Part shown: positions 3 to 8,774 of the stretch, piece by piece | How positions within the stretch are numbered: the stretch's first letter is position 1 | Layout: each line of letters starts with the position of its first letter | DNA from: an uncultured Candidatus Bathyarchaeia archaeon | Lineage (GTDB): Archaea > Thermoproteota > Bathyarchaeia > Bathyarchaeales > Bathycorpusculaceae | Length of the DNA stretch: 13,067 bases | Assembly: GCA_964450845.1 (NCBI GenBank) | Contig: CAYVGZ010000043.1 | Coordinates: forward strand, 1-13,067 | Direction: 5' to 3' | Translations under genes and position numbers: made by a program | Notes under the pieces: model-generated | The model's database searches: none | What the model was told of the DNA's origin: nothing | The model's input: only the letters and a program-made list of their open reading frames with translations

Positions 3-2243
3 GTAGGCTTTCGCCCCTTCATCTATCGTACAGCAGTCAAAAATGATTTAAAAGGATACGTTAGAAACAGAGGCGATGCTGGAGTAGAAATTCTTCTCGA
101 AGGTGAAGAAAAGGACATTGAAAATTTCATGCAAGATTTGAAGCAAAAGAAGCCCCCTCTTGCACAAATCCACAATGTCATCACAACAAGACTAAAAGGC
201 AAAAGCGAATACGAAAGATTCACAATTTATAAGAGCTCGGAGGAAGCAGAGCTTTCTGGTTCAGTTATCCCTCCAGACATAGCCATATGCAACGAATGCC
301 TAAGAGAGCTCAGAGACCCAAAAGACCCAAGATACAAATACTTCTTTATTACTTGCACGGACTGTGGTCCAAGATTCACAATTATCGAAAAGCTTCCGTA
401 CGACCGCGAAAACACTACCATGCGGGACTTTCCCATGTGCAGCTTCTGCCAAAGCGAATACACAGACCCATTAAACAGGCGCTTTCACGCCCAAACCGTG
501 GCTTGTCCAAAATGCGGACCAAAAGCATATTTAACAACCAGAAACGGCGAACTAATTGAACATAAAGACCCTATACGAGAAGCTGGTAGACTCCTTTCAG
601 AAGGCTTTATACTTGCCATAAAAGGTTATGGTGGTTTTCACGTTGCTACGTCAACAACGAAAGATGAGCCATTAATTAGGCTTAGAAAGGTTAAGCATAG
701 AAGCCAGAAGCCCTTCGCCATTATGGCTCGAAGCTTAGAAGCCATAAAAACTTTTACAGAATTAAGCGAGAAAGAAGCAGAGCTTCTAACTTCTTATAGT
801 CGCCCAATAGTTTTGCTGAACAAAAGCGCTGAATATTATCTTTCAGATTTGATTGCTCCAAGTTTGCACAATGTTGGGGTTATGCTCCCCTACACTGGGT
901 TGCATTACATGCTTTTTGACGAAACGAATGAGCCAGCGTTTGTGATGACAAGTGCTAATCCGCTAGATCAACCAATAATAAAGGACAACGAGGAAGCCTT
1001 GCAGAGGCTGGGCGACACTGTTGACTACTTCTTGTTTCACAATCGCAGAATTGCTCAAAGATGCGACGACTCAGTAGTTCGTGTACACGACAAAGATTCG
1101 GTATTCATAAGACGCTCACGAGGTTACGCACCAGCCCCAATAATGCTTAGACGAAAAGCGAAACGTTGCGTTTTAGGCTTAGGCGGAGAATTAAACAATA
1201 CAGTATGCGTTTTACTTGAAAATAAGGCGTTTATTTCCCAACACTTAGGCGACGTAGAAAACGTTGAAACAATTGATTTTCTGAAAGATGCAACAAAACA
1301 CCTAATCCGCTTAACAAACAGCAAAGTAGAAGCAGTTGCATGCGATTTGCATCCAAAATTCACAACAACAAAGCTTGCACATGATTTGGCAGAAGAAAAC
1401 AATTGGCAACTAGCTCAGGTTCAGCATCACTACGCGCATATCGCTGCTTTAATGGTTGAACATGACATTAAAGAAATCGTGGGTACGTGTTGTGATGGGT
1501 ATGGGTATGGAATTGATGGAGAAGCATGGGGCGGCGAAATATTGCTTTGCACCCAAGAAAGCGCCGATTTCAAACGGGTAGCTCACCTTGAAAAACAACC
1601 CTTAATTGGCGGGGACTTGGCTACTTGTTACCCTCTAAGAATTGCCGCTGGCATACTCTATAAAAAAGTCAACATGGAAAGCTGGCTCCTAAGAAACAAG
1701 CAGCACTTTCCACACGGCGAAAACGAAATCCAAATAATTCTTAGCCAACTTGAAAAAGGTCATAACATAATTGGAACAACAAGCTGTGGAAGAGTTTTAG
1801 ACGCTGTTGCATCCGTTTTGGGCGTATGCTATGAACGCACGTATGAAGGCGAACCAGCCATGAAACTTGAATCAGCCGCAATAAAAGGCAAAGATGTGCT
1901 GAAGCTAAAACCCATAATAAAAAACAACACGTTAGACACTACCCAAATGCTCCTGGAGATATTTGAGAACCGAGAAAAACACTCTAACGCAGATTTGGCT
2001 TACTCTGCTCATGCGTACCTAGCAACGGGCTTAGCCGCATTAGCCATAGAAAAAGCATTAGAAAACAACGTTAAAACGGTTGGTTTTTCAGGTGGAGTTG
2101 CATGCAACGAAATTTTAGCATTAATCATGCGGAAAACCGTAGAACATGCTGGCTTACGGTTTCTGGTTCACGAGTCTATTCCGCCAGGCGACGGCGGCTT
2201 ATCCTTTGGTCAAGCTGTTGTAGGTGGATTTTTCCGGTTTTGA
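3..2243 (+). CDS. hypF: Carbamoyltransferase HypF ([NiFe]-hydrogenase maturation), 5'-truncated by the window edge
   Basis: The frame is open upstream of the ORF-track ATG at 129 and reads VGFRPFIYRTAVKNDLKGYVRNRGDAGVEILLEG from nt 3 (acylphosphatase-like domain). It then shows two CxxC...CxxC Zn fingers (CNEC..CTDCGPR; CSFC..HAQTVACPKCGP), KGYGGFH, RRSRGYAP, DLHP, QHHYAH, DGYGYG, FSGGVACN and PPGDGGLSFGQ. Confidence 0.98.
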   Translation, partial: VGFRPFIYRTAVKNDLKGYVRNRGDAGVEILLEGEEKDIENFMQDLKQKKPPLAQIHNVITTRLKGKSEYERFTIYKSSEEAELSGSVIPPDIAICNECLRELRDPKDPRYKYFFITCTDCGPRFTIIEKLPYDRENTTMRDFPMCSFCQSEYTDPLNRRFHAQTVACPKCGPKAYLTTRNGELIEHKDPIREAGRLLSEGFILAIKGYGGFHVATSTTKDEPLIRLRKVKHRSQKPFAIMARSLEAIKTFTELSEKEAELLTSYSRPIVLLNKSAEYYLSDLIAPSLHNVGVMLPYTGLHYMLFDETNEPAFVMTSANPLDQPIIKDNEEALQRLGDTVDYFLFHNRRIAQRCDDSVVRVHDKDSVFIRRSRGYAPAPIMLRRKAKRCVLGLGGELNNTVCVLLENKAFISQHLGDVENVETIDFLKDATKHLIRLTNSKVEAVACDLHPKFTTTKLAHDLAEENNWQLAQVQHHYAHIAALMVEHDIKEIVGTCCDGYGYGIDGEAWGGEILLCTQESADFKRVAHLEKQPLIGGDLATCYPLRIAAGILYKKVNMESWLLRNKQHFPHGENEIQIILSQLEKGHNIIGTTSCGRVLDAVASVLGVCYERTYEGEPAMKLESAAIKGKDVLKLKPIIKNNTLDTTQMLLEIFENREKHSNADLAYSAHAYLATGLAALAIEKALENNVKTVGFSGGVACNEILALIMRKTVEHAGLRFLVHESIPPGDGGLSFGQAVVGGFFRF

Positions 2244-2291
2244 ACCATAACTGATTTATTGCTGCACATTTTTGGTTAAATATCGATAATA

Positions 2292-2522
2292 ATGTGTTTG
2301 GCGATTCCAGCGAAAGTCGTAAGCGTTAAAGAAGACAAGGCCAAAGTGGACTTTGGTGAAGGCGTTTTAAGAGAAGTTAATGTGGCGCTTGTAAATGCTA
2401 AAGTTGGCGACTATGTTTTGGTGCATGCTGGCTACGCCATCGAAGTTTTAGACGAAAAAGAAGCCCAAGAAACCATACGCTTATGGAACGAAATCCTTGA
2501 AGCCGAAACCCACCAGAAATAA
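2292..2522 (+). CDS. hypC: Hydrogenase assembly chaperone HypC/HupF
   Basis: N-terminal MCLAIPAKV (Cys2) and VGDYVLVHAGYAI motifs; 76 aa; lies between hypF and hypD. Confidence 0.98.
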   Translation: MCLAIPAKVVSVKEDKAKVDFGEGVLREVNVALVNAKVGDYVLVHAGYAIEVLDEKEAQETIRLWNEILEAETHQK

Positions 2523-2534
2523 AGTTGACTGGAA

Positions 2535-3611
2535 ATGGCTGAAAAATTGAGGTTTAGAGACCCAGACTTGGCGAAACGCATAGCAGAAAAAATCCGCAAA
2601 ATTGCATCAAAAAAAGAAATCGTTAAGATTTGCCATGTCTGCGGCACACATGAATGGACTATTACACATTTTGGCATACGCAGTCTATTACCTGAAAATG
2701 TGGAAGTCATTGCTGGACCCGGATGTCCAGTCTGTGTAACGCCCGCCTCCGAAGTTGATGAAGCCGTGCAATTAGCCTTGAAAGGCGTGACGGTTACTTG
2801 TTTTGGCGACGTTCTACGTGTTCCAGGCTCGAAGACATCTCTTTTAGAAGCTAAAGCAGAAGGCGCCGACGTTCGCATAGTTTATAGCGTCAGCGATGCT
2901 GAAAAGATAGCTCAAAAAGAGCCGAACAGAGAATTCTGTTTTTTCGCTATTGGTTTTGAAACAACAGCTCCTTCTACAGCAGTGGAAATTCTGAACAAAC
3001 CACCAAGAAACCTCAGCTTTCTGGTTTCGCATCGTTTGATTCCTCCAGCAATGAAGCTGCTCGTCGAAATGGAAGACTTGAGCCTAAACGGATTTATCGC
3101 ACCTGGACATGTCAGCACGATTATTGGGCTTAAGCCCTACGAAATTTTCCCAAAACTTTACAGCATGCCAACAGTTGTGACAGGATTCGAACCCCTCGAC
3201 ATCTTATTTGGTGCATACATGATTTTGAAACAGTTGAGGGAAGGCAAACCACGCTTGGAAAACGAGTATACACGGGCTGTACGTTGGGAAGGTAACACGA
3301 AAGCGCAAGAGCTAATGCAAAAAGTCTTCGATGTTGTTGATGGCAACTGGCGTGGACTAAGCACAATTCCTTCTTCAAAACTCACGCTTAAAGAGAAATA
3401 CGTAGCCTATGACGCACATTTGAAACATAACGTAAAAGTGGAACATGGAGTTGATATACAAAAGGGCTGCAGGTGCCACCTAGTTATAATTGGCAAGATT
3501 AAGCCAACGGAATGCCCCCTATTCATGAAAGCCTGCACTCCGCAAAAGCCTGTAGGCGCATGCATGGTAAGCGTTGAAGGAACATGCAGAATCTGGGCAA
3601 AAGCGGCATGA
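2535..3611 (+). CDS. hypD: Hydrogenase formation protein HypD
   Basis: HVCGTH, GPGCPVC, GFETT, PGHVS and GFEP motifs, plus the C-terminal Fe-S Cys cluster CRC...PTECPLF...C..QKPVGACMVSVEGTC. Confidence 0.98.
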   Translation: MAEKLRFRDPDLAKRIAEKIRKIASKKEIVKICHVCGTHEWTITHFGIRSLLPENVEVIAGPGCPVCVTPASEVDEAVQLALKGVTVTCFGDVLRVPGSKTSLLEAKAEGADVRIVYSVSDAEKIAQKEPNREFCFFAIGFETTAPSTAVEILNKPPRNLSFLVSHRLIPPAMKLLVEMEDLSLNGFIAPGHVSTIIGLKPYEIFPKLYSMPTVVTGFEPLDILFGAYMILKQLREGKPRLENEYTRAVRWEGNTKAQELMQKVFDVVDGNWRGLSTIPSSKLTLKEKYVAYDAHLKHNVKVEHGVDIQKGCRCHLVIIGKIKPTECPLFMKACTPQKPVGACMVSVEGTCRIWAKAA

Positions 3612-3640
3612 AAAATCCGCAGAACACATCAACAATCTTA

Positions 3641-3660
3641 GAAAAGCTTTTATTTAAATA
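3641..3660 (+). promoter_or_regulatory. Candidate archaeal BRE/TATA promoter for the DUF996-like gene
   Basis: GAAAAGCTTTTATTTAAATA: a purine-rich BRE-like run followed by a TATA-like run. An SD-like GAGGT lies at 3678-3682, before the ATG at 3694. Confidence 0.5.
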
Positions 3661-3693
3661 GATTCAAACCGTTGTGCGAGGTATTGAAAAAGA

Positions 3694-4332
3694 ATGAACT
3701 TAGAAACAAGCAAAAATCTTGGCGGAATAGGAGCAATACTTGTTGCCATTGGTGGGCTAGCCACTTTTGGCTACGGCTTAGCTGGCTTACTGAGCCTCAT
3801 TGGAATAATACTTGTGCTTATAGCGGCTAAAGGTTTAGCAGACAATTACGGCGAAGTAGGCATATTCAACAACGCGCTGTATGCTCTAATCATGGGAGTA
3901 ATAGGCGTCATAGCTCTCATAGGTGTTCTAGTGTTTTCTGTTTTCTCAGCATTTGCTGATTTGGGTATAGATACTACAGATTGGGCTAACGTGGGTCCAC
4001 AGTTTCAGGAACGTCTAATGGGAGGAGACTGGGACTTTATTTGGAAATTACTTGGAGCTGCTATCTTGGCTTGGGTCGTGCTTTCAATTTGTGTTATAAT
4101 TGCAGTCATCTTCTCAAGAAAATCATTAAACCTTGCTTCGGCAAAAACTGGAGTAGGCATGTTTGGCACTGCAGGAATACTAATGCTAATAGGCGGTATC
4201 TTGGCCATAGTATTTATCGGCTACTTACTTATCTGGATTGCTTGGATATTGATCGCTGTTGCTTTCTTCTCGATTAGAACAACGGCAACTCAACAAACTG
4301 CACCTGCACAACCCTCGCAACCTTCTGCATAA
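3694..4332 (+). CDS. DUF996-like multi-pass membrane protein
   Basis: N-terminus MNLETSKNLGGIGAIL, then GIILVLIA.KGLAD.Y..IFNNALY and TGVGMFGTAG..L.IGG.L.I.IG.LL.WIAWIL.AVAFFS, which match my recollection of the archaeal DUF996 family. About 5-6 hydrophobic segments and a Q/P/A-rich C-tail. Confidence 0.8.
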   Translation: MNLETSKNLGGIGAILVAIGGLATFGYGLAGLLSLIGIILVLIAAKGLADNYGEVGIFNNALYALIMGVIGVIALIGVLVFSVFSAFADLGIDTTDWANVGPQFQERLMGGDWDFIWKLLGAAILAWVVLSICVIIAVIFSRKSLNLASAKTGVGMFGTAGILMLIGGILAIVFIGYLLIWIAWILIAVAFFSIRTTATQQTAPAQPSQPSA

Positions 4333-4345
4333 GCTAGCACCCACA

Positions 4346-4351
4346 TTTTTT
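4346..4351 (+). terminator. Possible oligo-T intrinsic terminator after the DUF996-like gene
   Basis: T6 tract 13 nt after the stop codon. Archaeal terminators are U-rich, but the sequence is AT-rich so chance is possible. Confidence 0.3.
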
Positions 4352-4415
4352 ATCATTCTATACTTGACAAGTTTTAAACGCAAAAAACTCGTATTAAGTA
4401 TGAAGTGTATCCCAA

Positions 4416-4628
4416 ATGAGCAGAGAAACTGGAAAGACTTTTGCTGGCAAATGCGTTGATTGCGGTTCACCACTAGTGTTGTATGAGGTTGATTTTGAGA
4501 AAAACAGACGAATCATGCAGTGCAATCGATGCGGCTTATTTCATTTCTATAAGAAGGATTTCTTTGGCAAGTGGAAGCTTGTGAAGGCTGGTAGAGTTTC
4601 AGATTTATGGAGAAAACCATCAAAATAA
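4416..4628 (+). CDS. Small Zn-ribbon-like protein (70 aa, CxxC-x19-CxxC)
   Basis: CVDCG...CNRCG pairs with a beta-hairpin-like spacer and a basic/aromatic C-tail. It fills an otherwise empty gap and converges on hypE. Confidence 0.75.
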   Translation: MSRETGKTFAGKCVDCGSPLVLYEVDFEKNRRIMQCNRCGLFHFYKKDFFGKWKLVKAGRVSDLWRKPSK

Positions 4629-4652
4629 TGGTGTCTGTTCACTCCGAATGGC

Positions 4653-5720
4653 TTAGCATATTCTGGGAACGGGGTCGCCCACAGGTCTAGCAATTATCCT
4701 TTTTCCACCGACAACAGTCTGCATCGCCACACCCATGAAATCCATTGTTGCTTCGCCGATGATTTCTGCTTCTTTCCCCTCTTCAGTTGTTCTTAAAAGC
4801 TCCAAAATCTCTTCAGCCTTTTCCTTCACTGTACCAATGATTATTTTTCCCTCGTTTCCAACTTCAAGCGGGTCTAAGCCCAACATTTCACATGCTGCTC
4901 GCACATCTTCTCTGACTGGAATCTTGTCTTCGTGAACCAGTACGCCCACCTTTGATTTTTCGCTGAACTCGTTTAAGGCATCTGCTAAGCCTCCACGCGT
5001 TGGGTCTTTCATTGCAACTACGCCGCCAACTTCGCCGAGCAAACGCTGAATTAAACGGTTTAAGGGTTTAACATCAGATTTTATGCTACTTCCAAAACTT
5101 AATCCTTCTTGAGCGGATAAGACGGCTAAACCATGGTCGCCAACTGTTCCAGACAATATTATCTTGTCGCCTGCCATAAGGTTTGAGTCTAAAACCCAAC
5201 GCGCTTTAAAGTCCTTTTTAAATCGTTTAACAATTTCAAGATTTTTATCTAAAGCCATGGTTCTTCTTCCAATTCCAGAAGTGTTTATTACACAGCCGCC
5301 TAAGCTTCCCTTCTCAACAACCTTCGTATCCCCAGTAACAATGCTCACACCAGCTTCCTTGCAAGTCCGCTGCATGCTAGCCAAAATCCTTTCAAAATCA
5401 GCCAAGGCTAAACCTTCCTCCAAAACGAAGCCACAAGTCAAAGCGTATGGTTCAGCACCCAAAACTGCAATGTCGTTGACTGTGCCAGAAACCGCTAAAC
5501 GCCCAATGTCCCCGCCAAGGAAGAAAATGGGTTTAACGACATGAGAGTCGCTTTTTAACACTATGTCGTCTACAACGGCTGCGTCATCAAGGGCTTCAAG
5601 TGGCACTTCGAAGTTGGCTGCGTTGCCAAAATACTTTACAATATACTTTTTAACTAAATCGTGCATGACTGTTCCGCCAGCACCATGCAACATGGTAACA
5701 TGCTCATTCTTAACAGCCAA
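4653..5720 (-). CDS. hypE: Hydrogenase maturation carbamoyl dehydratase HypE
   Basis: HGAGG, LDDAAV, KSDSHVVKPIFFLGGDIGRLAVSGTVND, VTGDTKVV, GDHG, MKDPTRGGL, NEGK and the C-terminal PRIC-stop with the essential terminal Cys. Start reassigned from 5777 to TTG 5720 (MAVKNEHVTMLHG), with GAGG upstream; GTG 5729 is an alternative. Confidence 0.97.
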   Translation of the reverse strand: MAVKNEHVTMLHGAGGTVMHDLVKKYIVKYFGNAANFEVPLEALDDAAVVDDIVLKSDSHVVKPIFFLGGDIGRLAVSGTVNDIAVLGAEPYALTCGFVLEEGLALADFERILASMQRTCKEAGVSIVTGDTKVVEKGSLGGCVINTSGIGRRTMALDKNLEIVKRFKKDFKARWVLDSNLMAGDKIILSGTVGDHGLAVLSAQEGLSFGSSIKSDVKPLNRLIQRLLGEVGGVVAMKDPTRGGLADALNEFSEKSKVGVLVHEDKIPVREDVRAACEMLGLDPLEVGNEGKIIIGTVKEKAEEILELLRTTEEGKEAEIIGEATMDFMGVAMQTVVGGKRIIARPVGDPVPRIC

Positions 5721-5806
5721 TTTCCACACTCGCCTCAGTTCTGAATATCTAACCTTAAAAGTTAGACATAAACACATCGTAAAATTGTTTCGAAGTCAGC
5801 TGTCAC

Positions 5807-6773: not shown

Positions 6774-6789
6774 CGCAGAGGTGGAAAAT

Positions 6790-6948
6790 GTGGTTAAGAA
6801 AGCTGTAATTGTTATTTCTCTTGTTGAAGAGAGCACCAAAGTGGAGAATGGAAAAATTGAAAAAGAAATTCTAAATGAACTTTCTGAGGAGCCAACTAAG
6901 ATCCCATGGCTAAAGGAAGTTGAGAAGGTAACGGTCACCGAAGAGTAA
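6790..6948 (+). CDS. Small 52-aa acidic hypothetical protein (not in the ORF track)
   Basis: SD GAGGTG at 6778-6783, GTG at 6790, TAA at 6946-6948. Translation: MVKKAVIVISLVEESTKVENGKIEKEILNELSEEPTKIPWLKEVEKVTVTEE, a natural-looking beta-alpha-beta pattern. It explains the 6756-6938 minus ORF as a shadow. Confidence 0.8.
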   Translation: MVKKAVIVISLVEESTKVENGKIEKEILNELSEEPTKIPWLKEVEKVTVTEE

Positions 6949-6958
6949 AAGATAGCCT

Positions 6959-8098
6959 TTATGCCTCGACGTTCTCCAGTCTAACCTTTCTTACCATATT
7001 TTGAAGGTTTTCCATATGTTTCTTATGATCATAAGTCCACGATCCATTCTTAAAATACTCGTAGGAAATGGTTTGGCGTGAAGAGTTTTCAAAGTCCTGA
7101 ATTACGTAGCGGTAGCTCTCTAGAAAACCAGTTTTAATGAGCTTTGATAAGGCTTTTAAAAAGTTTTTAAACTCTGATCTTGGAAGATAGACGTATGCAT
7201 AGAGAGCATTTTTGCCTAAGATCTTGCCAAGAGTTTTTGCGAATGGTTTATCTAACATTGAAGATGCGAATTTTGCAAGCTTTTCATAATTATCGAAGCT
7301 AAAGATGAAAAAGCAAAAATCTGAGGTTTCTCTGCCGAAATGAAAGGCTGTAACTTCAAAGCTTTCAATTAAACCTCTCCTAATTAGATGCTGGTGATAA
7401 TGATATCGAGCCAGTTGTGGAGATATTTTAAGCATTTCCGCTAATTTGGCTATTTTAATCGTTGCGTCCTTTTCCAACTCCTTTAACATTAGCACATCGA
7501 TTTCGTCCCCTAGAATGGGGAAATCTTTAGGTTCAATTAGCGTGTAGGGCAATTTTGTTTGCTCATTTTTGATCTCTTCAATCCAGTTATCCCACTGAAG
7601 GCTCCAGTATCCCAGCTGCTTGTCAAACCACATACTCCTTGAATTAACCGAGTGGAAACACGTGGACCAAAAAACATCAACGTTTTTAGCCACACCTAAT
7701 CTTTTAATTTCGTTGAGAAATTGCTCAAATTCATTGCGGTGAATTTTCGGAATCGCAAAGACACTAACGCAACCTTCAAACATGCCATAACATCTTGAAA
7801 TAGCAAGCCAAAACCCATTCTGTTTTAGGCAATTAAAGAGTAAATCCTCATACCCGGGAATCGCTTCAGCCAAAACGACAGCTTTCTTAAGTCCTAAATT
7901 AGTATGGTAAATGTTTACGTTCATTCTTAAAAAAATTTGGGAGCGAAGGCGCTTCAGCTTTTTACGCAAAGTTTCTGCAGGCATGCCTAGCTTCCTAGCA
8001 ACTTCTGACACATTTCTAGGACCATAAGTTGCCAAGTCTTCTAGAATTCTTAGATCAGATAGGCTGAGATTGATATTCTCAATCGGCAAGTGTGTCAA
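6959..8098 (-). CDS. Tandem (double) Lrp/AsnC-like winged-helix transcriptional regulator
   Basis: HTH1 DLRILEDLATYGPRNVSEVARKLGMPAETLRKKLKRL and HTH2 DEIDVLMLKELEKDATIKIAKLAEMLKISPQLARYH. Each is followed by a ~120-140 aa alpha/beta effector-type region ending in an aromatic 'F.x..G.W' motif. Start is TTG 8098 or, better spaced from AGGAG (8103-8099), TTG 8089. Confidence 0.8.
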   Translation of the reverse strand: MTHLPIENINLSLSDLRILEDLATYGPRNVSEVARKLGMPAETLRKKLKRLRSQIFLRMNVNIYHTNLGLKKAVVLAEAIPGYEDLLFNCLKQNGFWLAISRCYGMFEGCVSVFAIPKIHRNEFEQFLNEIKRLGVAKNVDVFWSTCFHSVNSRSMWFDKQLGYWSLQWDNWIEEIKNEQTKLPYTLIEPKDFPILGDEIDVLMLKELEKDATIKIAKLAEMLKISPQLARYHYHQHLIRRGLIESFEVTAFHFGRETSDFCFFIFSFDNYEKLAKFASSMLDKPFAKTLGKILGKNALYAYVYLPRSEFKNFLKALSKLIKTGFLESYRYVIQDFENSSRQTISYEYFKNGSWTYDHKKHMENLQNMVRKVRLENVEA

Positions 8099-8125
8099 CT
8101 CCTAATATAATTAGTAATATGCCTT

Positions 8126-8140
8126 CTTTAAATTTTCAGT
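8126..8140 (-). promoter_or_regulatory. Candidate BRE/TATA promoter for the tandem Lrp-like regulator
   Basis: The minus strand reads ACTGAAAA-TTTAAAG just after the peptide gene stop. Canonical spacing would put the TSS near 8103. Confidence 0.5.
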
Positions 8141-8143
8141 TTT

Positions 8144-8338
8144 TCAGCTAGGGAAGACTGGATTGTCAACAGGGTCGCCTGTAGGTTGAATGTTTCCATA
8201 GCCTGTGGTTACTGCTATGGTTTTTGTTACACTAGATGAAACTGGTGTTGGAATTTTCAACGTCACAGCTACTGTGGCAATTGTTGAAATTGTAGCGAGA
8301 AGTGTTAGAGCTAGTAAGAATATAACTTTCATGTTCAA
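8144..8338 (-). CDS. Small exported/membrane-anchored peptide precursor (62-64 aa) with a C-terminal QPTGDPVDNPVFPS motif
   Basis: Strong SD GGAGGTGA (8350-8343) followed by TTG 8338 or ATG 8332. Translation from ATG: MKVIFLLALTLLATISTIATVAVTLKIPTPVSSSVTKTIAVTTGYGNIQPTGDPVDNPVFPS. It has an n-region Lys, a hydrophobic h-region, a Thr/Ser/Val-rich linker and a Pro-periodic tail. The 8413 start in the ORF track runs through the divergent promoter and is unlikely. Confidence 0.8.
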   Translation of the reverse strand: MNMKVIFLLALTLLATISTIATVAVTLKIPTPVSSSVTKTIAVTTGYGNIQPTGDPVDNPVFPS

Positions 8339-8396
8339 TTTCTCACCTCCATTTTTGTTTTTTAACCCAGAAAGATAATATGTATAGATGAAAAGA

Positions 8397-8410
8397 AAAA
8401 AAGTTATATG
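8397..8410 (+). promoter_or_regulatory. Candidate BRE/TATA promoter for the PadR-like gene
   Basis: AAAAAAG-TTATATG about 31 nt upstream of GTG 8442. Confidence 0.55.
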
Positions 8411-8414
8411 CAAT

Positions 8415-8434
8415 TAGCTTCTAGAAGTAGCTTC
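8415..8434. repeat. Perfect 10-bp palindrome CTTCTAGAAG overlapping a TAGCTTC direct repeat (candidate operator)
   Basis: Palindrome at 8418-8427; TAGCTTC at 8415-8421 and 8428-8434; located between the TATA box and the PadR-like start. Confidence 0.45.
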
Positions 8435-8441
8435 CATAGGT

Positions 8442-8774
8442 GTGTTAACTTTGGAATCTGAGATTCTGGTGAAAATGAATAGAAGGGTCGTCACTGTTTT
8501 TCTAGACGCATTGATTTTGTTGAAGTTAAGGAATGCCCCGTTGAGCGGTTACGACATCGTTTCCTACATTCATAAACGCTTTGCTGTGCCTATCTGCGCG
8601 GGTACGGTTTACACATGTTTATATCACCTTGAAAGAGACGGGCTAATTAAAGGAGACTATGCTCAGAGGAAAAAGACGTATGTGCTGAGCGAAAAGGGAA
8701 GTGAAACGGTGAAAACCCTGTTAAGTATGAGGGACAAGATTTTAGGACTTGTTTTAAACATCGTTATGGGCTAA
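8442..8774 (+). CDS. PadR-family winged-helix transcriptional regulator (short type)
   Basis: LDALILLKLRNAPLSGYDIVSYIHKRFAVPICAGTVYTCLYHLERDGLI...RKKTYVLSEKG matches the PadR pattern (GY.I, GTVY..L..LE..GLI, R..Y.L...G). 110 aa. Confidence 0.88.
   Translation: MLTLESEILVKMNRRVVTVFLDALILLKLRNAPLSGYDIVSYIHKRFAVPICAGTVYTCLYHLERDGLIKGDYAQRKKTYVLSEKGSETVKTLLSMRDKILGLVLNIVMG

Follow-up and report, generated by a model that had tools for sequence, protein, structure and literature searches.

The RRNPP(A) cassettes of Bacillota and their phages (Rap/Phr, NprR/NprX, PlcR/PapR, Rgg/SHP, ComR/ComS, and AimR/AimP) place the gene of a short exported pro-peptide beside the gene of a cytoplasmic regulator. 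In the Rap/Phr, PlcR/PapR, Rgg/SHP, and ComR/ComS systems, the precursor encoded beside the regulator is exported, processed, re-imported, and finally bound by that regulator, the receptors being of the TPR type. To our knowledge, cell-to-cell communication in archaea is almost a blank. Here we describe a gene pair from the Bathyarchaeia, a globally abundant, uncultured lineage of sediment and soil, which forms a conserved cassette, tightly linked and co-diversifying, and which the structural models make a credible candidate for peptide signalling in archaea. The literature on archaeal peptide signalling (Bathyarchaeota, Asgard), on RRNPP systems in archaea, and on Lrp proteins acting with peptides yielded no description of such a cassette.

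Like the RRNPP(A) cassettes, the Bathyarchaeia locus sets a short, putatively exported pro-peptide beside a cytoplasmic regulator, with a precursor whose N-terminus resembles a signal peptide and whose active part should lie at the C-terminal end; a genome can carry more than one cassette, each with its own peptide, and the layout suggests autoregulation. Unlike them, it has an archaeal host and a Pro/Asp/Gly-rich peptide with a family-wide motif, its putative receptor is a fused double Lrp/AsnC protein (winged helix-turn-helix, wHTH, plus RAM) rather than a TPR protein, with no homology between the two, and it often has a divergent small PadR/wHTH gene upstream. The features of the locus in the window, that is, the whole stretch of 13,067 nucleotides that was analysed, are as follows.

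8442..8774, plus strand: divergent small winged-HTH gene of the PadR family, 110 aa (Pfam PadR, 3.3e-09)
8404..8427, minus strand: conserved upstream block, candidate operator/promoter of the peptide gene (palindrome CTTCTAGAAG at 8418-8427, then TATA-like CATATAA at 8404-8410)
8343..8350, minus strand: Shine-Dalgarno sequence GGAGGTGA, 10 nt ahead of the peptide ATG
8144..8332, minus strand: pre-peptide gene, candidate exported precursor, 62 aa plus stop (translation)
8267..8332, minus strand: putative signal peptide, residues 1-22 (by inspection)
8186..8266, minus strand: variable Thr/Ser/Val-rich linker, residues 23-49 (family-wide identity)
8147..8185, minus strand: conserved C-terminal tail, residues 50-62 (PTGDPVDNPVFPS), candidate mature peptide/ligand (motif and predicted interface)
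8099..8143, minus strand: peptide-regulator spacer, 45 nt (sequence)
6959..8098, minus strand: tandem Lrp/AsnC-type regulator gene, 379 aa (Pfam, PDB profile search, AF2 model, Foldseek)
7928..8077, minus strand: first winged HTH, residues 8-57 (Pfam HTH_20/TrmB at 8-53; model helices 13-25, 30-37, and 41-54)
7664..7927, minus strand: first RAM-like domain, residues 58-145 (PDB profile match to PH1519 residues 21-144; beta-alpha-beta-beta-alpha-beta in the model)
7370..7507, minus strand: second winged HTH, residues 198-243 (Pfam HTH_AsnC-type PF13404, 4.5e-10; HTH_24 PF13412, 1.4e-09)
6962..7369, minus strand: second RAM-like domain and family-specific C-terminal extension, residues 244-379 (profile, model)

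The peptide gene runs from an ATG at 8332 to a TGA stop at 8146-8144 (62 codons), and what an earlier note on this DNA had read from its letters is there: a strong Shine-Dalgarno sequence, and a Cys-free reading frame composed of a signal, a Thr/Ser/Val linker, and a distinct tail, with 11 Thr and 5 Ser overall and tail Pro at residues 50, 54, 58, and 61, further Pro residues standing at 28 and 30. The peptide ends in NIQPTGDPVDNPVFPS, followed by the stop codon, and with its upstream extension the tail reads (IQPT)GDPVDNPVFPS. The genome search found the gene as a single copy in its own genome, and GGAGGTGA is kept 5' of nearly all homologous peptide genes. Pfam and NCBIfam searches with the window peptide and 18 homologues returned scattered chance matches to single members only, and a look-up of the window peptide in the ESM Atlas returned no usable match.

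An n/h/c layout is, by inspection, common to all 51 distinct homologous precursors found upstream of regulator homologues, the majority of which carry two to three basic residues before the h-region, acidic ones after it, and A-x-A-like sites. Candidate cleavage sites are clear by eye in the minimal forms described below and in those of the g142 clade (VFA|E, VHA|G, and VSA|G). The window precursor has an n-region MK, a long h-region, and a c-region ending in T-V-A, and signal peptide cleavage would probably fall after A22; its h-region of about 20 residues could, however, serve as an uncleaved anchor, the site T-V-A|V being less clear on inspection than those of the minimal and g142 forms. 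As the earlier note had described, the peptide gene lies co-oriented with the regulator, both on the minus strand, and its stop is separated by 45 nt from the regulator start, a TTG at 8098. This spacer is free of any oligo-T run, which makes co-transcription of the two genes likely; in homologous loci, the spacers measure 10-97 nt, or 101-142 nt in the g142 clade. Since an AGGAG (8103-8099) lies immediately against the TTG at 8098, translation of the regulator may in fact begin at another in-frame TTG, at 8089.

The regulator is a fused double Lrp, and the tandem Lrp-like architecture proposed in the earlier note is borne out by Pfam HTH matches (residues 8-53 and 198-233), by PDB profiles, and by the AF2 model. 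Both halves match full-length Lrp/FFRP chains in the PDB profile search (ST1022, 3.7e-16, residues 198-310; PH1519, 3.4e-12, residues 8-132), and the alignment runs through the RAM domain of ST1022, PH0140, and PH1519, although the Pfam RAM model itself (PF01037) finds no match in the regulator. The AF2 model (pLDDT 96.2) consists of two HTHs and beta-alpha-beta-beta-alpha-beta units, and Foldseek matches it to single Lrps at TM 0.6-0.73 (normalised to target). Pfam detects in this chain HTH families only and no TPR-type peptide-binding domain, in keeping with the double Lrp fold given by the model and Foldseek. The family comprises 928 proteins at E<=1e-5, annotated simply as Lrp/AsnC regulators.

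Like the Lrp/AsnC proteins or FFRPs (PH1519/FL11, ST1022/Grp, LrpA, and E. coli Lrp), each half has an N-terminal wHTH and a C-terminal RAM domain (profile E values of 1e-12 to 1e-16). Ligands of FFRPs bind at RAM-RAM interfaces. The present family departs from the FFRPs in that two units are fused in one chain to give a pseudo-dimer, in that a family-specific, aromatic-rich extension follows each RAM domain, and in that a gene-encoded peptide of 9-15 residues, rather than a free amino acid, is predicted as the ligand. The second RAM-like domain with its extension includes a conserved R-Q-T-I-S-Y (341-346) and an invariant W354. The double-Lrp architecture, fused or heterodimeric, is shared with the siroheme decarboxylases NirDL and AhbA-AhbB (PDB 4ch7, 4czd), but these catalyse steps in the biosynthesis of haem d1 and haem and have no adjacent peptide gene. 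For the whole chain, Foldseek ranks the fused NirDL 4ch7 first (E 2.4e-10, TM 0.54/0.64), at an identity of 10%; with this low identity, no Pfam or NCBIfam match to siroheme decarboxylases (NirD/L/G/H, AhbA/B), and no haem-biosynthesis context, an assignment to that enzyme family was rejected at the sequence level.

The pairing of the two genes goes far beyond chance. A peptide-type reading frame (co-oriented, small, with a hydrophobic N-terminus and the tail motif, and ending no more than 200 nt away) lies upstream of 49 of the 50 regulator homologues of at least 33% identity with readable upstream DNA, vs 2 of 246 other genes taken as a control, and this linkage spans families, orders, and paralogous copies. 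The reverse search gave the same picture: all 14 matches of the peptide HMM in 61 related genomes (E<=1e-6) stand directly upstream of a regulator homologue, with zero orphans. Outside this set, a 14-member regulator clade from one family (f35) has no peptide gene nearby, nor does any motif-bearing or conserved small reading frame, as expected of a leaderless micropeptide, occur within 350-400 nt on either side of its regulators. A phylum-wide search added 32 distant loci, 26 from other Thermoproteota classes and 6 from Bathyarchaeia or unplaced, among which 2 have a peptide gene, both in genus g240; most regulator homologues in other Thermoproteota classes are without one nearby. These peptide-less regulators, in the f35 clade and in other classes, imply that the fold does not require the peptide.

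Within the precursor, conservation as measured by identity is limited to the tail. The mean pairwise identity of the tail is 0.32 vs 0.24 for shuffled sequence, whereas the linker, at 0.18 vs 0.17, is no more alike than shuffled sequence and is also the least conserved part of the precursor in comparison with a congener (80% nucleotide identity). The motif at the C-terminus can be written G-[DE]-P-[VI]-[DP]-x-[PG]-x-x-P-x; certain tails contain Cys, His, or Trp, none of which is universal. Two minimal forms occur in nature, one in which the signal peptide is followed directly by nine residues, EP[VI]D.P..P, and another in which it is followed by A-x-A and then by GD.xGGG.H.II..L, of 15-17 residues, while five precursors (L017, L082, L084, L106, and L024) repeat the core two or three times. 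These minimal forms and repeated cores point to the tail as the functional unit, and the repetition within one precursor implies proteolytic release of the repeated unit. Repeated cores are likewise found in yeast alpha-factor and in multi-core RiPP precursors (cyanobactins), but most members of the present family, the window peptide included, are single-core, and no processing or modifying enzymes lie nearby. On a regulator tree from a quick IQ-TREE search, the tail classes map onto regulator clades, a match equally expected from plain vertical co-inheritance; in genomes with two cassettes, the two tails differ.

C-terminal sorting signals consist of a motif followed by a TM helix and a basic tail, and recur on many proteins per genome. 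A reading of the tail as such a signal (PGF-CTERM, PEF-CTERM, or another archaeosortase/exosortase substrate) was rejected, given that the tail ends the protein without a C-terminal TM helix, that the gene is single-copy, and that significant HMM matches are found only beside regulators.

When the regulator and the peptide are modelled together, tail residues 48-62 come to lie between the two RAM domains, in a cleft, and the predicted interface on the peptide comprises exactly these residues. The ipSAE value, which is the model's own confidence, is 0.89 (runs of 0.91, 0.86, and 0.89) vs 0.02 for the best control; at least 80% of the contacts agree between runs, with a partner pLDDT of 57 or more. 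In a calibration of this score, 58 of 80 solved complexes attained the mark, as did 2 of 110 mismatched pairs, counts that hold only roughly because our own alignments were used. The predicted contacts lie in the first RAM-like domain (residues 58-62 and 92-113), in the second HTH (residues 206, 209, and 210), and in the second RAM-like domain with its extension (residues 245-261, 288-302, 334-348, and 364), and the peptide's F60 occupies a hydrophobic pocket. Contact columns are richer than other columns in variation specific to the tail class (MI/H 0.67 vs 0.60, p=2e-5), which could in part be an effect of buried positions in general. Classes B and E keep G-D but lack R341, the residue that the model puts in contact with D53. 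The earlier note had proposed a more conserved tail, peptides that adjoin tandem-Lrp genes and vary with them, and a multimer model of the two partners; with a tail more alike than the linker, homologous peptides next to the regulator genes in both search directions, tail classes that track regulator clades, and the C-terminal 15 residues predicted in the cleft, its peptide-receptor reading has gained computational support.

Upstream of the peptide gene, the palindrome and TATA-like block are kept across regulator clades A, B, and Amin and fall within a block that is 100% identical to the congener; the upstream region as a whole is 95% identical and the wider alignment 89%, and we claim no unusual intergenic conservation. 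A search of the 1.64-Mb genome for the composite operator motif found the cassette as its sole site and hence no regulon. Both HTHs of the regulator keep basic recognition helices, columns 41, 42, 46, 52, and 54 of the HTH1 recognition helix vary by clade, and the upstream DNA motifs also differ by clade; these clade-specific columns and motifs are indirect hints of sequence-specific DNA binding by the regulator. When reading frames up to 3 kb to either side were compared all-against-all across 44 loci, the divergent small wHTH gene was the only neighbour to recur, and no modifying enzyme, immunity gene, dedicated exporter, peptidase, or importer was conserved by the cassette. At least 13 of the 44 loci carry, at the corresponding place, a divergent gene of about 110 aa, and sampled cases belong to PadR (3 of 3, plus the window) or are NitrOD5-like wHTH proteins (2 of 2, the second of these weakly), so that, judged by gene order, the divergent small wHTH gene appears as a recurrent third member of the module. 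The other neighbours in the window are hypothetical genes, eamA, and ribosomal genes.

The mechanism that we propose would begin with export of the 62-aa precursor by Sec and a signal peptidase cut after about A22. Outside the cell, the Thr/Ser linker would be trimmed to leave a Pro/Asp-rich C-terminal peptide of roughly 11-15 residues, a release for which the minimal and multi-core natural variants argue. The peptide would then be taken back up by the cell, perhaps by way of an ABC importer of the Opp/Dpp type (the genome carries one Opp/Dpp-type binding protein gene, SBP_bac_5), and, as the complex model suggests, bind the cleft between the RAM-like domains of the neighbouring tandem-Lrp regulator. 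Binding may in turn alter the action of the regulator at operators, which would include the palindrome by the TATA-like box ahead of the peptide gene and the divergent PadR gene. That the exported peptide is the ligand of the neighbouring Lrp-fold regulator, in a logic resembling that of RRNPP systems but with non-homologous parts, is a reading that we consider somewhat more probable than not, and its support is computational throughout. Density-dependent cell-to-cell signalling would depend on export, trimming, and re-import, all of which we infer. More tentatively, it is possible, if somewhat short of probable, that the Bathyarchaeia and at least one further Thermoproteota genus employ exported, gene-encoded peptides as diffusible signals between cells, read by fused double-Lrp receptors; this would amount to an archaeal peptide quorum sensing of an origin independent of RRNPP, with a pherotype-like diversification of matched pairs.

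Several other readings of the locus have to be weighed against a peptide ligand. The product of the small gene could be secreted as a bioactive or RiPP-like peptide with, for instance, antimicrobial, metal-binding, or adhesive activity, its production merely controlled by the tandem-Lrp and PadR proteins, with no binding of the peptide by the regulator. The signal peptide and conserved Gly/Pro/Asp-rich core of the precursor would suit this, as would multi-core precursors, which are known from several RiPP and pheromone families, the Cys, His, or Trp of certain tails, and the two regulators that flank the peptide gene. We nevertheless consider it rather unlikely: those residues are not universal, RiPPs usually conserve the leader and vary the core, which is the reverse of the situation here, none of the accessory genes sought is conserved within 3 kb on either side in the 44 loci (though such enzymes may be encoded elsewhere), tail classes follow regulator clades, and the complex model with its clean controls favours direct binding. 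Small signal-anchored proteins are, in addition, common in archaeal genomes, and the reading frame might specify a minor protein of the envelope or surface whose only tie to the regulator is a common operon, an adjacency devoid of ligand-receptor meaning. Linkage in 49 of 50 cases across families, orders, and paralogous copies without orphan peptides, conservation confined to a short C-terminal motif, and the complex model all speak against this, and we give it very little credence. Both the RiPP and the surface-peptide alternatives are weakened by these findings.

The complex model shows how the tail may fit the cleft and not where the two partners would meet, which leaves room for the regulator to sense the peptide inside the cell, either as a sensor for feedback or secretion load that binds unexported precursor, or by being tethered to a membrane precursor with a cytoplasmic tail. 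One Lys on either side of the hydrophobic stretch of the window peptide does not strongly fix its topology, and an operator motif unique to the cassette suggests a self-contained loop. Against such intracellular sensing, the basic n-regions, the acidic residues after the h-region, and the A-x-A-like sites of most precursors are typical of cleaved N-in/C-out signal peptides, and a variable spacer of 20-30 residues together with repeated cores is hard to explain for a purely intracellular ligand; we regard it as distinctly improbable. Lastly, the tandem Lrp-fold protein might not be a transcription factor at all and might instead act on the peptide tail as an enzyme or chaperone: NirDL and AhbA/B reuse the Lrp fold, and NirDL 4ch7, the best whole-chain structural match, shows that an enzyme with a substrate cleft can be built on a fused double-Lrp scaffold. 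However, the identity to NirDL is only 10%, no NirD/AhbA Pfam match is found, the profile match to true Lrp regulators (3.7e-16) is far better than that to AhbA/B (6.4e-05), basic recognition helices are kept in both HTHs, and recognition helix and upstream DNA motif change together between clades, which places this among the least probable of the readings, a shade below the envelope protein.

Returning to the peptide as ligand of the regulator, the cassette offers a concrete and testable pair, namely a short, synthesisable peptide and a soluble protein with a very confident model. If the reading holds, the cassette would stand as the first case of peptide signalling in archaea, the Lrp/RAM fold, familiar from amino acid sensing, would be able to read gene-encoded peptides as well, and matched peptide/receptor sets would become available for archaeal genetics and for the study of social behaviour in Bathyarchaeia. 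Among the forms derived from the window tail, GDPVDNPVFPS, PVDNPVFPS, and IQPTGDPVDNPVFPS are of interest as candidate ligands.

The small Cys-free open reading frame in three parts, with an upstream SD, that the earlier note had claimed is present in the sequence on the minus strand, and so is the 45-nt gap separating its stop from the start of the regulator ORF, which has the same orientation. The relevant features of the window are:

129-5777, hydrogenase maturation cluster: hypF, hypC and hypD on the plus strand, an AIR-synthase-type hypE-like gene on the minus strand, and a DUF996 membrane protein
6959-8098, minus, regulator ORF, 379 aa, TTG start at 8098
8332 (ATG) to 8146-8144 (TGA), minus, peptide ORF, 62 residues by translation
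8404-8410, TATA-like CATATAA, adjoining the palindrome (region 8404-8441)
8418-8427, palindrome CTTCTAGAAG, in the DNA that separates the peptide gene from the divergent PadR gene
8442-8774, plus, divergent PadR-family gene, 110 aa

On inspection, the precursor consists of an n-region (MK), a hydrophobic segment about 20 residues long, a central linker rich in Thr, Ser and Val, and a tail ending in NIQPTGDPVDNPVFPS; the translation contains no Cys, and GGAGGTGA stands 10 nt ahead of the ATG. The AGGAG at 8103-8099 directly touches the regulator's TTG at 8098, and a second in-frame TTG at 8089, spaced 9 nt from AGGAG and giving a protein of 376 aa (region 8087-8103, minus strand), may be the true, better spaced start. 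Both genes are single-copy in their own genome, a 1.64-Mb MAG that is 93% complete, and their neighbors in the window are hypF/C/D, DUF996, the hypE-like gene, eamA, the divergent PadR gene and a ribosomal-protein operon. A 55-codon ORF at 6781-6948 on the plus strand, convergent with the 3' end of the regulator gene, is without a family match. When the window peptide and 18 of its homologues were scanned, no Pfam or NCBIfam family covered the precursor.

The peptide-regulator pair is a conserved cassette. The regulator is present in 30 of 61 related genomes, and the weak matches to the window peptide in these 61 genomes lie directly upstream of regulator homologues. The upstream DNA read at 143 fetched loci yielded 51 distinct precursors, 38-94 aa in length. 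In each, the n-region is basic and the h-region hydrophobic, and the gene is co-oriented with that of the regulator and ends 10-142 nt ahead of it. Under one fixed criterion, a peptide-type ORF precedes 49 of the 50 regulators of at least 33% identity with readable upstream DNA, against 2/246 among the other ORFs of at least 150 aa at the same loci; in the reverse direction, an HMM built from 18 peptides, run on the 61 genomes, matched 14 times at E<=1e-6, always directly upstream of a regulator homologue, which bears out the co-localization with tandem-Lrp genes that the earlier note had named as support. At lower identity (21-33%), tandem-Lrp homologues in other Thermoproteota classes are mostly without a peptide gene, the exception being one genus of another class, g240, whose precursors, 40-42 aa long and with the C-terminal ends GETPIDDPL and GGIPIADPDPS (L124:1205-1327 and L133:391-519 in regulator-oriented coordinates), are encoded about 150 nt ahead of a tandem-Lrp homologue of 25-27% identity; the cassette therefore reaches beyond Bathyarchaeia. 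For a clade of 14 rows from a single family, f35 (L091-L099, L101-L103, L105, L107), a search of 350-400 nt around the regulator turned up no peptide gene; the members of this clade are tandem-Lrp paralogues of about 30% identity, present in 2-4 copies per genome and at times in convergent pairs.

When the precursors are aligned from their C-terminal ends, the tails share the pattern G-[DE]-P-[VI]-[DP]-x-[PG]-x-x-P-x, and the check proposed for tail against linker came out in favor of the tail, with mean pairwise identities of 0.32 (shuffled 0.24) for the tail, 0.18 (shuffled 0.17) for the linker and 0.32 (shuffled 0.25) for the signal; compared with a congener, the linker is again least conserved, at 80% nucleotide identity versus 88-90% for signal and tail. 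Three natural variations suggest that the tail is the functional unit: in the minimal precursors (38-39 aa) the nine residues EP[VI]D.P..P come directly after an A-x-A-like site, a distant clade has GD.xGGG.H.II..L immediately after the A-x-A site, and five precursors (L024, L017, L082, L084 and, as a two-core form from Bathyarchaeia, L106) have the core in two or three tandem copies (DNGRPY x3, GDPV.GGHP x2, PNGDEIGGGWPTP x2, KALLGDGTGGGGHG x2).

The label "tandem Lrp-like regulator" proved right: Pfam recognizes one HTH at residues 8-53 and another at 198-233; an 85-homologue profile run against solved full-length Lrp/FFRP chains matches PH1519 with residues 8-132 (3.4e-12) and ST1022 with residues 198-310 (3.7e-16); the AF2 model, which is very confident (pLDDT 96.2, pTM 0.92), has two wHTH plus beta-alpha-beta-beta-alpha-beta units, with an extension after each; and the top whole-chain Foldseek match is NirDL (4ch7; TM 0.54/0.64), followed by single Lrp regulators. 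NirDL, a siroheme decarboxylase, shows that fused double-Lrp scaffolds exist, yet it is only 10% identical to the regulator. The family is modest, with 928 proteins found at E<=1e-5 and 441 clusters formed at 50% identity, and its members, where named at all, are called only "Lrp/AsnC regulator". Weak regulator matches also occur in 730-760-aa open frames from one family of the class (G091:C1:34642-35745, G070:C1:260511-261608, G062:C10:117025-118119), where the double-Lrp unit may exist in a larger fused form.

Complex prediction from the regulator alignment and residues 33-62 of the peptide alignment, a check the earlier note had suggested, placed the tail in a cleft with an ipSAE of 0.89 (runs 0.91, 0.86, 0.89) against 0.02 for the best control, the score being the model's own confidence and no measurement; the same mark is reached by 58/80 solved complexes and 2/110 mismatched pairs, a calibration that is only rough here because our own alignments were supplied. 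At least 80% of contacts are shared by the runs, partner pLDDT is at least 57, and the confident interface comprises exactly residues 48-62, that is, the conserved tail. In the model, F60 is surrounded by regulator residues 98-113, 261, 302 and 334-341, D53-V55 lie against 341-343 and 209-210, and the walls of the cleft come from the two RAM-like domains, helix one of HTH2 and the C-terminal extension, which contains the conserved R-Q-T-I-S-Y segment. No solved complex of an Lrp protein with a peptide is known to us from which the prediction could have been copied. The predicted contact columns are richer in tail-class-specific variation (MI/H 0.67 vs 0.60 elsewhere, p=2e-5; RAM regions alone, p=2e-4) and make up 8 of the 30 most class-discriminating columns, which lends weak support to the interface since buried positions generally may behave likewise.

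The co-variation that the earlier note had named as support is also seen: on a quick maximum-likelihood tree with 74 regulators as tips, the tail classes (GDP[VI]D.P..P, EP[VI]D.P..P, PID.PGGPT, GD..GG.W, GGGDPVPGGGIPK, GDPVPGG.., GDEGGG.RP and GD.xGGG.H) fall in separate, mostly well supported clades, and genomes with two cassettes have different tails in each. This match is consistent with ligand-receptor co-evolution and no proof of it, because plain vertical co-inheritance yields the same pattern.

Alongside the observed linkage, shape of conservation, co-diversification and fold, the complex model suggests that the regulator binds the tail, and the best reading, which we hold to be somewhat better than an even bet, is that the exported peptide is the ligand of the adjacent double-Lrp regulator. 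The precursor would be cleaved and then trimmed, and the peptide would be re-imported (one Opp/Dpp-type binding protein is encoded in the genome); the regulator would bind DNA, and the response would depend on density. Its working logic would be that of the RRNPP cassettes of Bacillota, whose parts are unrelated to those found here. According to a 2025 paper (PMC12240190), archaeal quorum sensing has been described in no more than three cases, and filI is the sole gene shown to participate. The literature searched gave no description of the peptide/double-Lrp cassette.

Four other explanations are all weakened. It is unlikely that the peptide is a secreted bioactive or RiPP-like product whose making is locally controlled; among the 44 loci compared, the cassette has no recurrent neighbor that is a transporter, a peptidase or a modifying enzyme. 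Sensing of the precursor tail inside the cell seems more doubtful still. Adjacency without meaning, read beside the linkage counts, is very improbable, and least probable of all is an Lrp scaffold working as enzyme or chaperone; the sequence evidence groups the regulator with Lrp regulators and not with the siroheme decarboxylase.

In the DNA ahead of the peptide gene, a palindrome, (C)TTCTAGAA(G), is common to three regulator clades (A, B and the minimal-precursor clade); CATATAA comes about 8 nt after it, about 75 nt before the peptide ATG, and together they are a candidate shared operator and promoter. The remaining clades have conserved upstream motifs of their own, and the regulator columns that differ most between clades include 41, 42, 46, 52 and 54 of the HTH1 recognition helix. 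The 1.64-Mb genome contains no further sites of the composite motif and no regulon was found, so that the module, with the cassette site as sole copy, looks self-contained. In at least 13/44 homologous loci the position of the window's PadR gene is taken by a small wHTH gene, likewise divergent and about 110 aa long (Pfam: PadR in three tested and in the window's, NitrOD5-like weakly in two tested), and the module may therefore be one of three genes.
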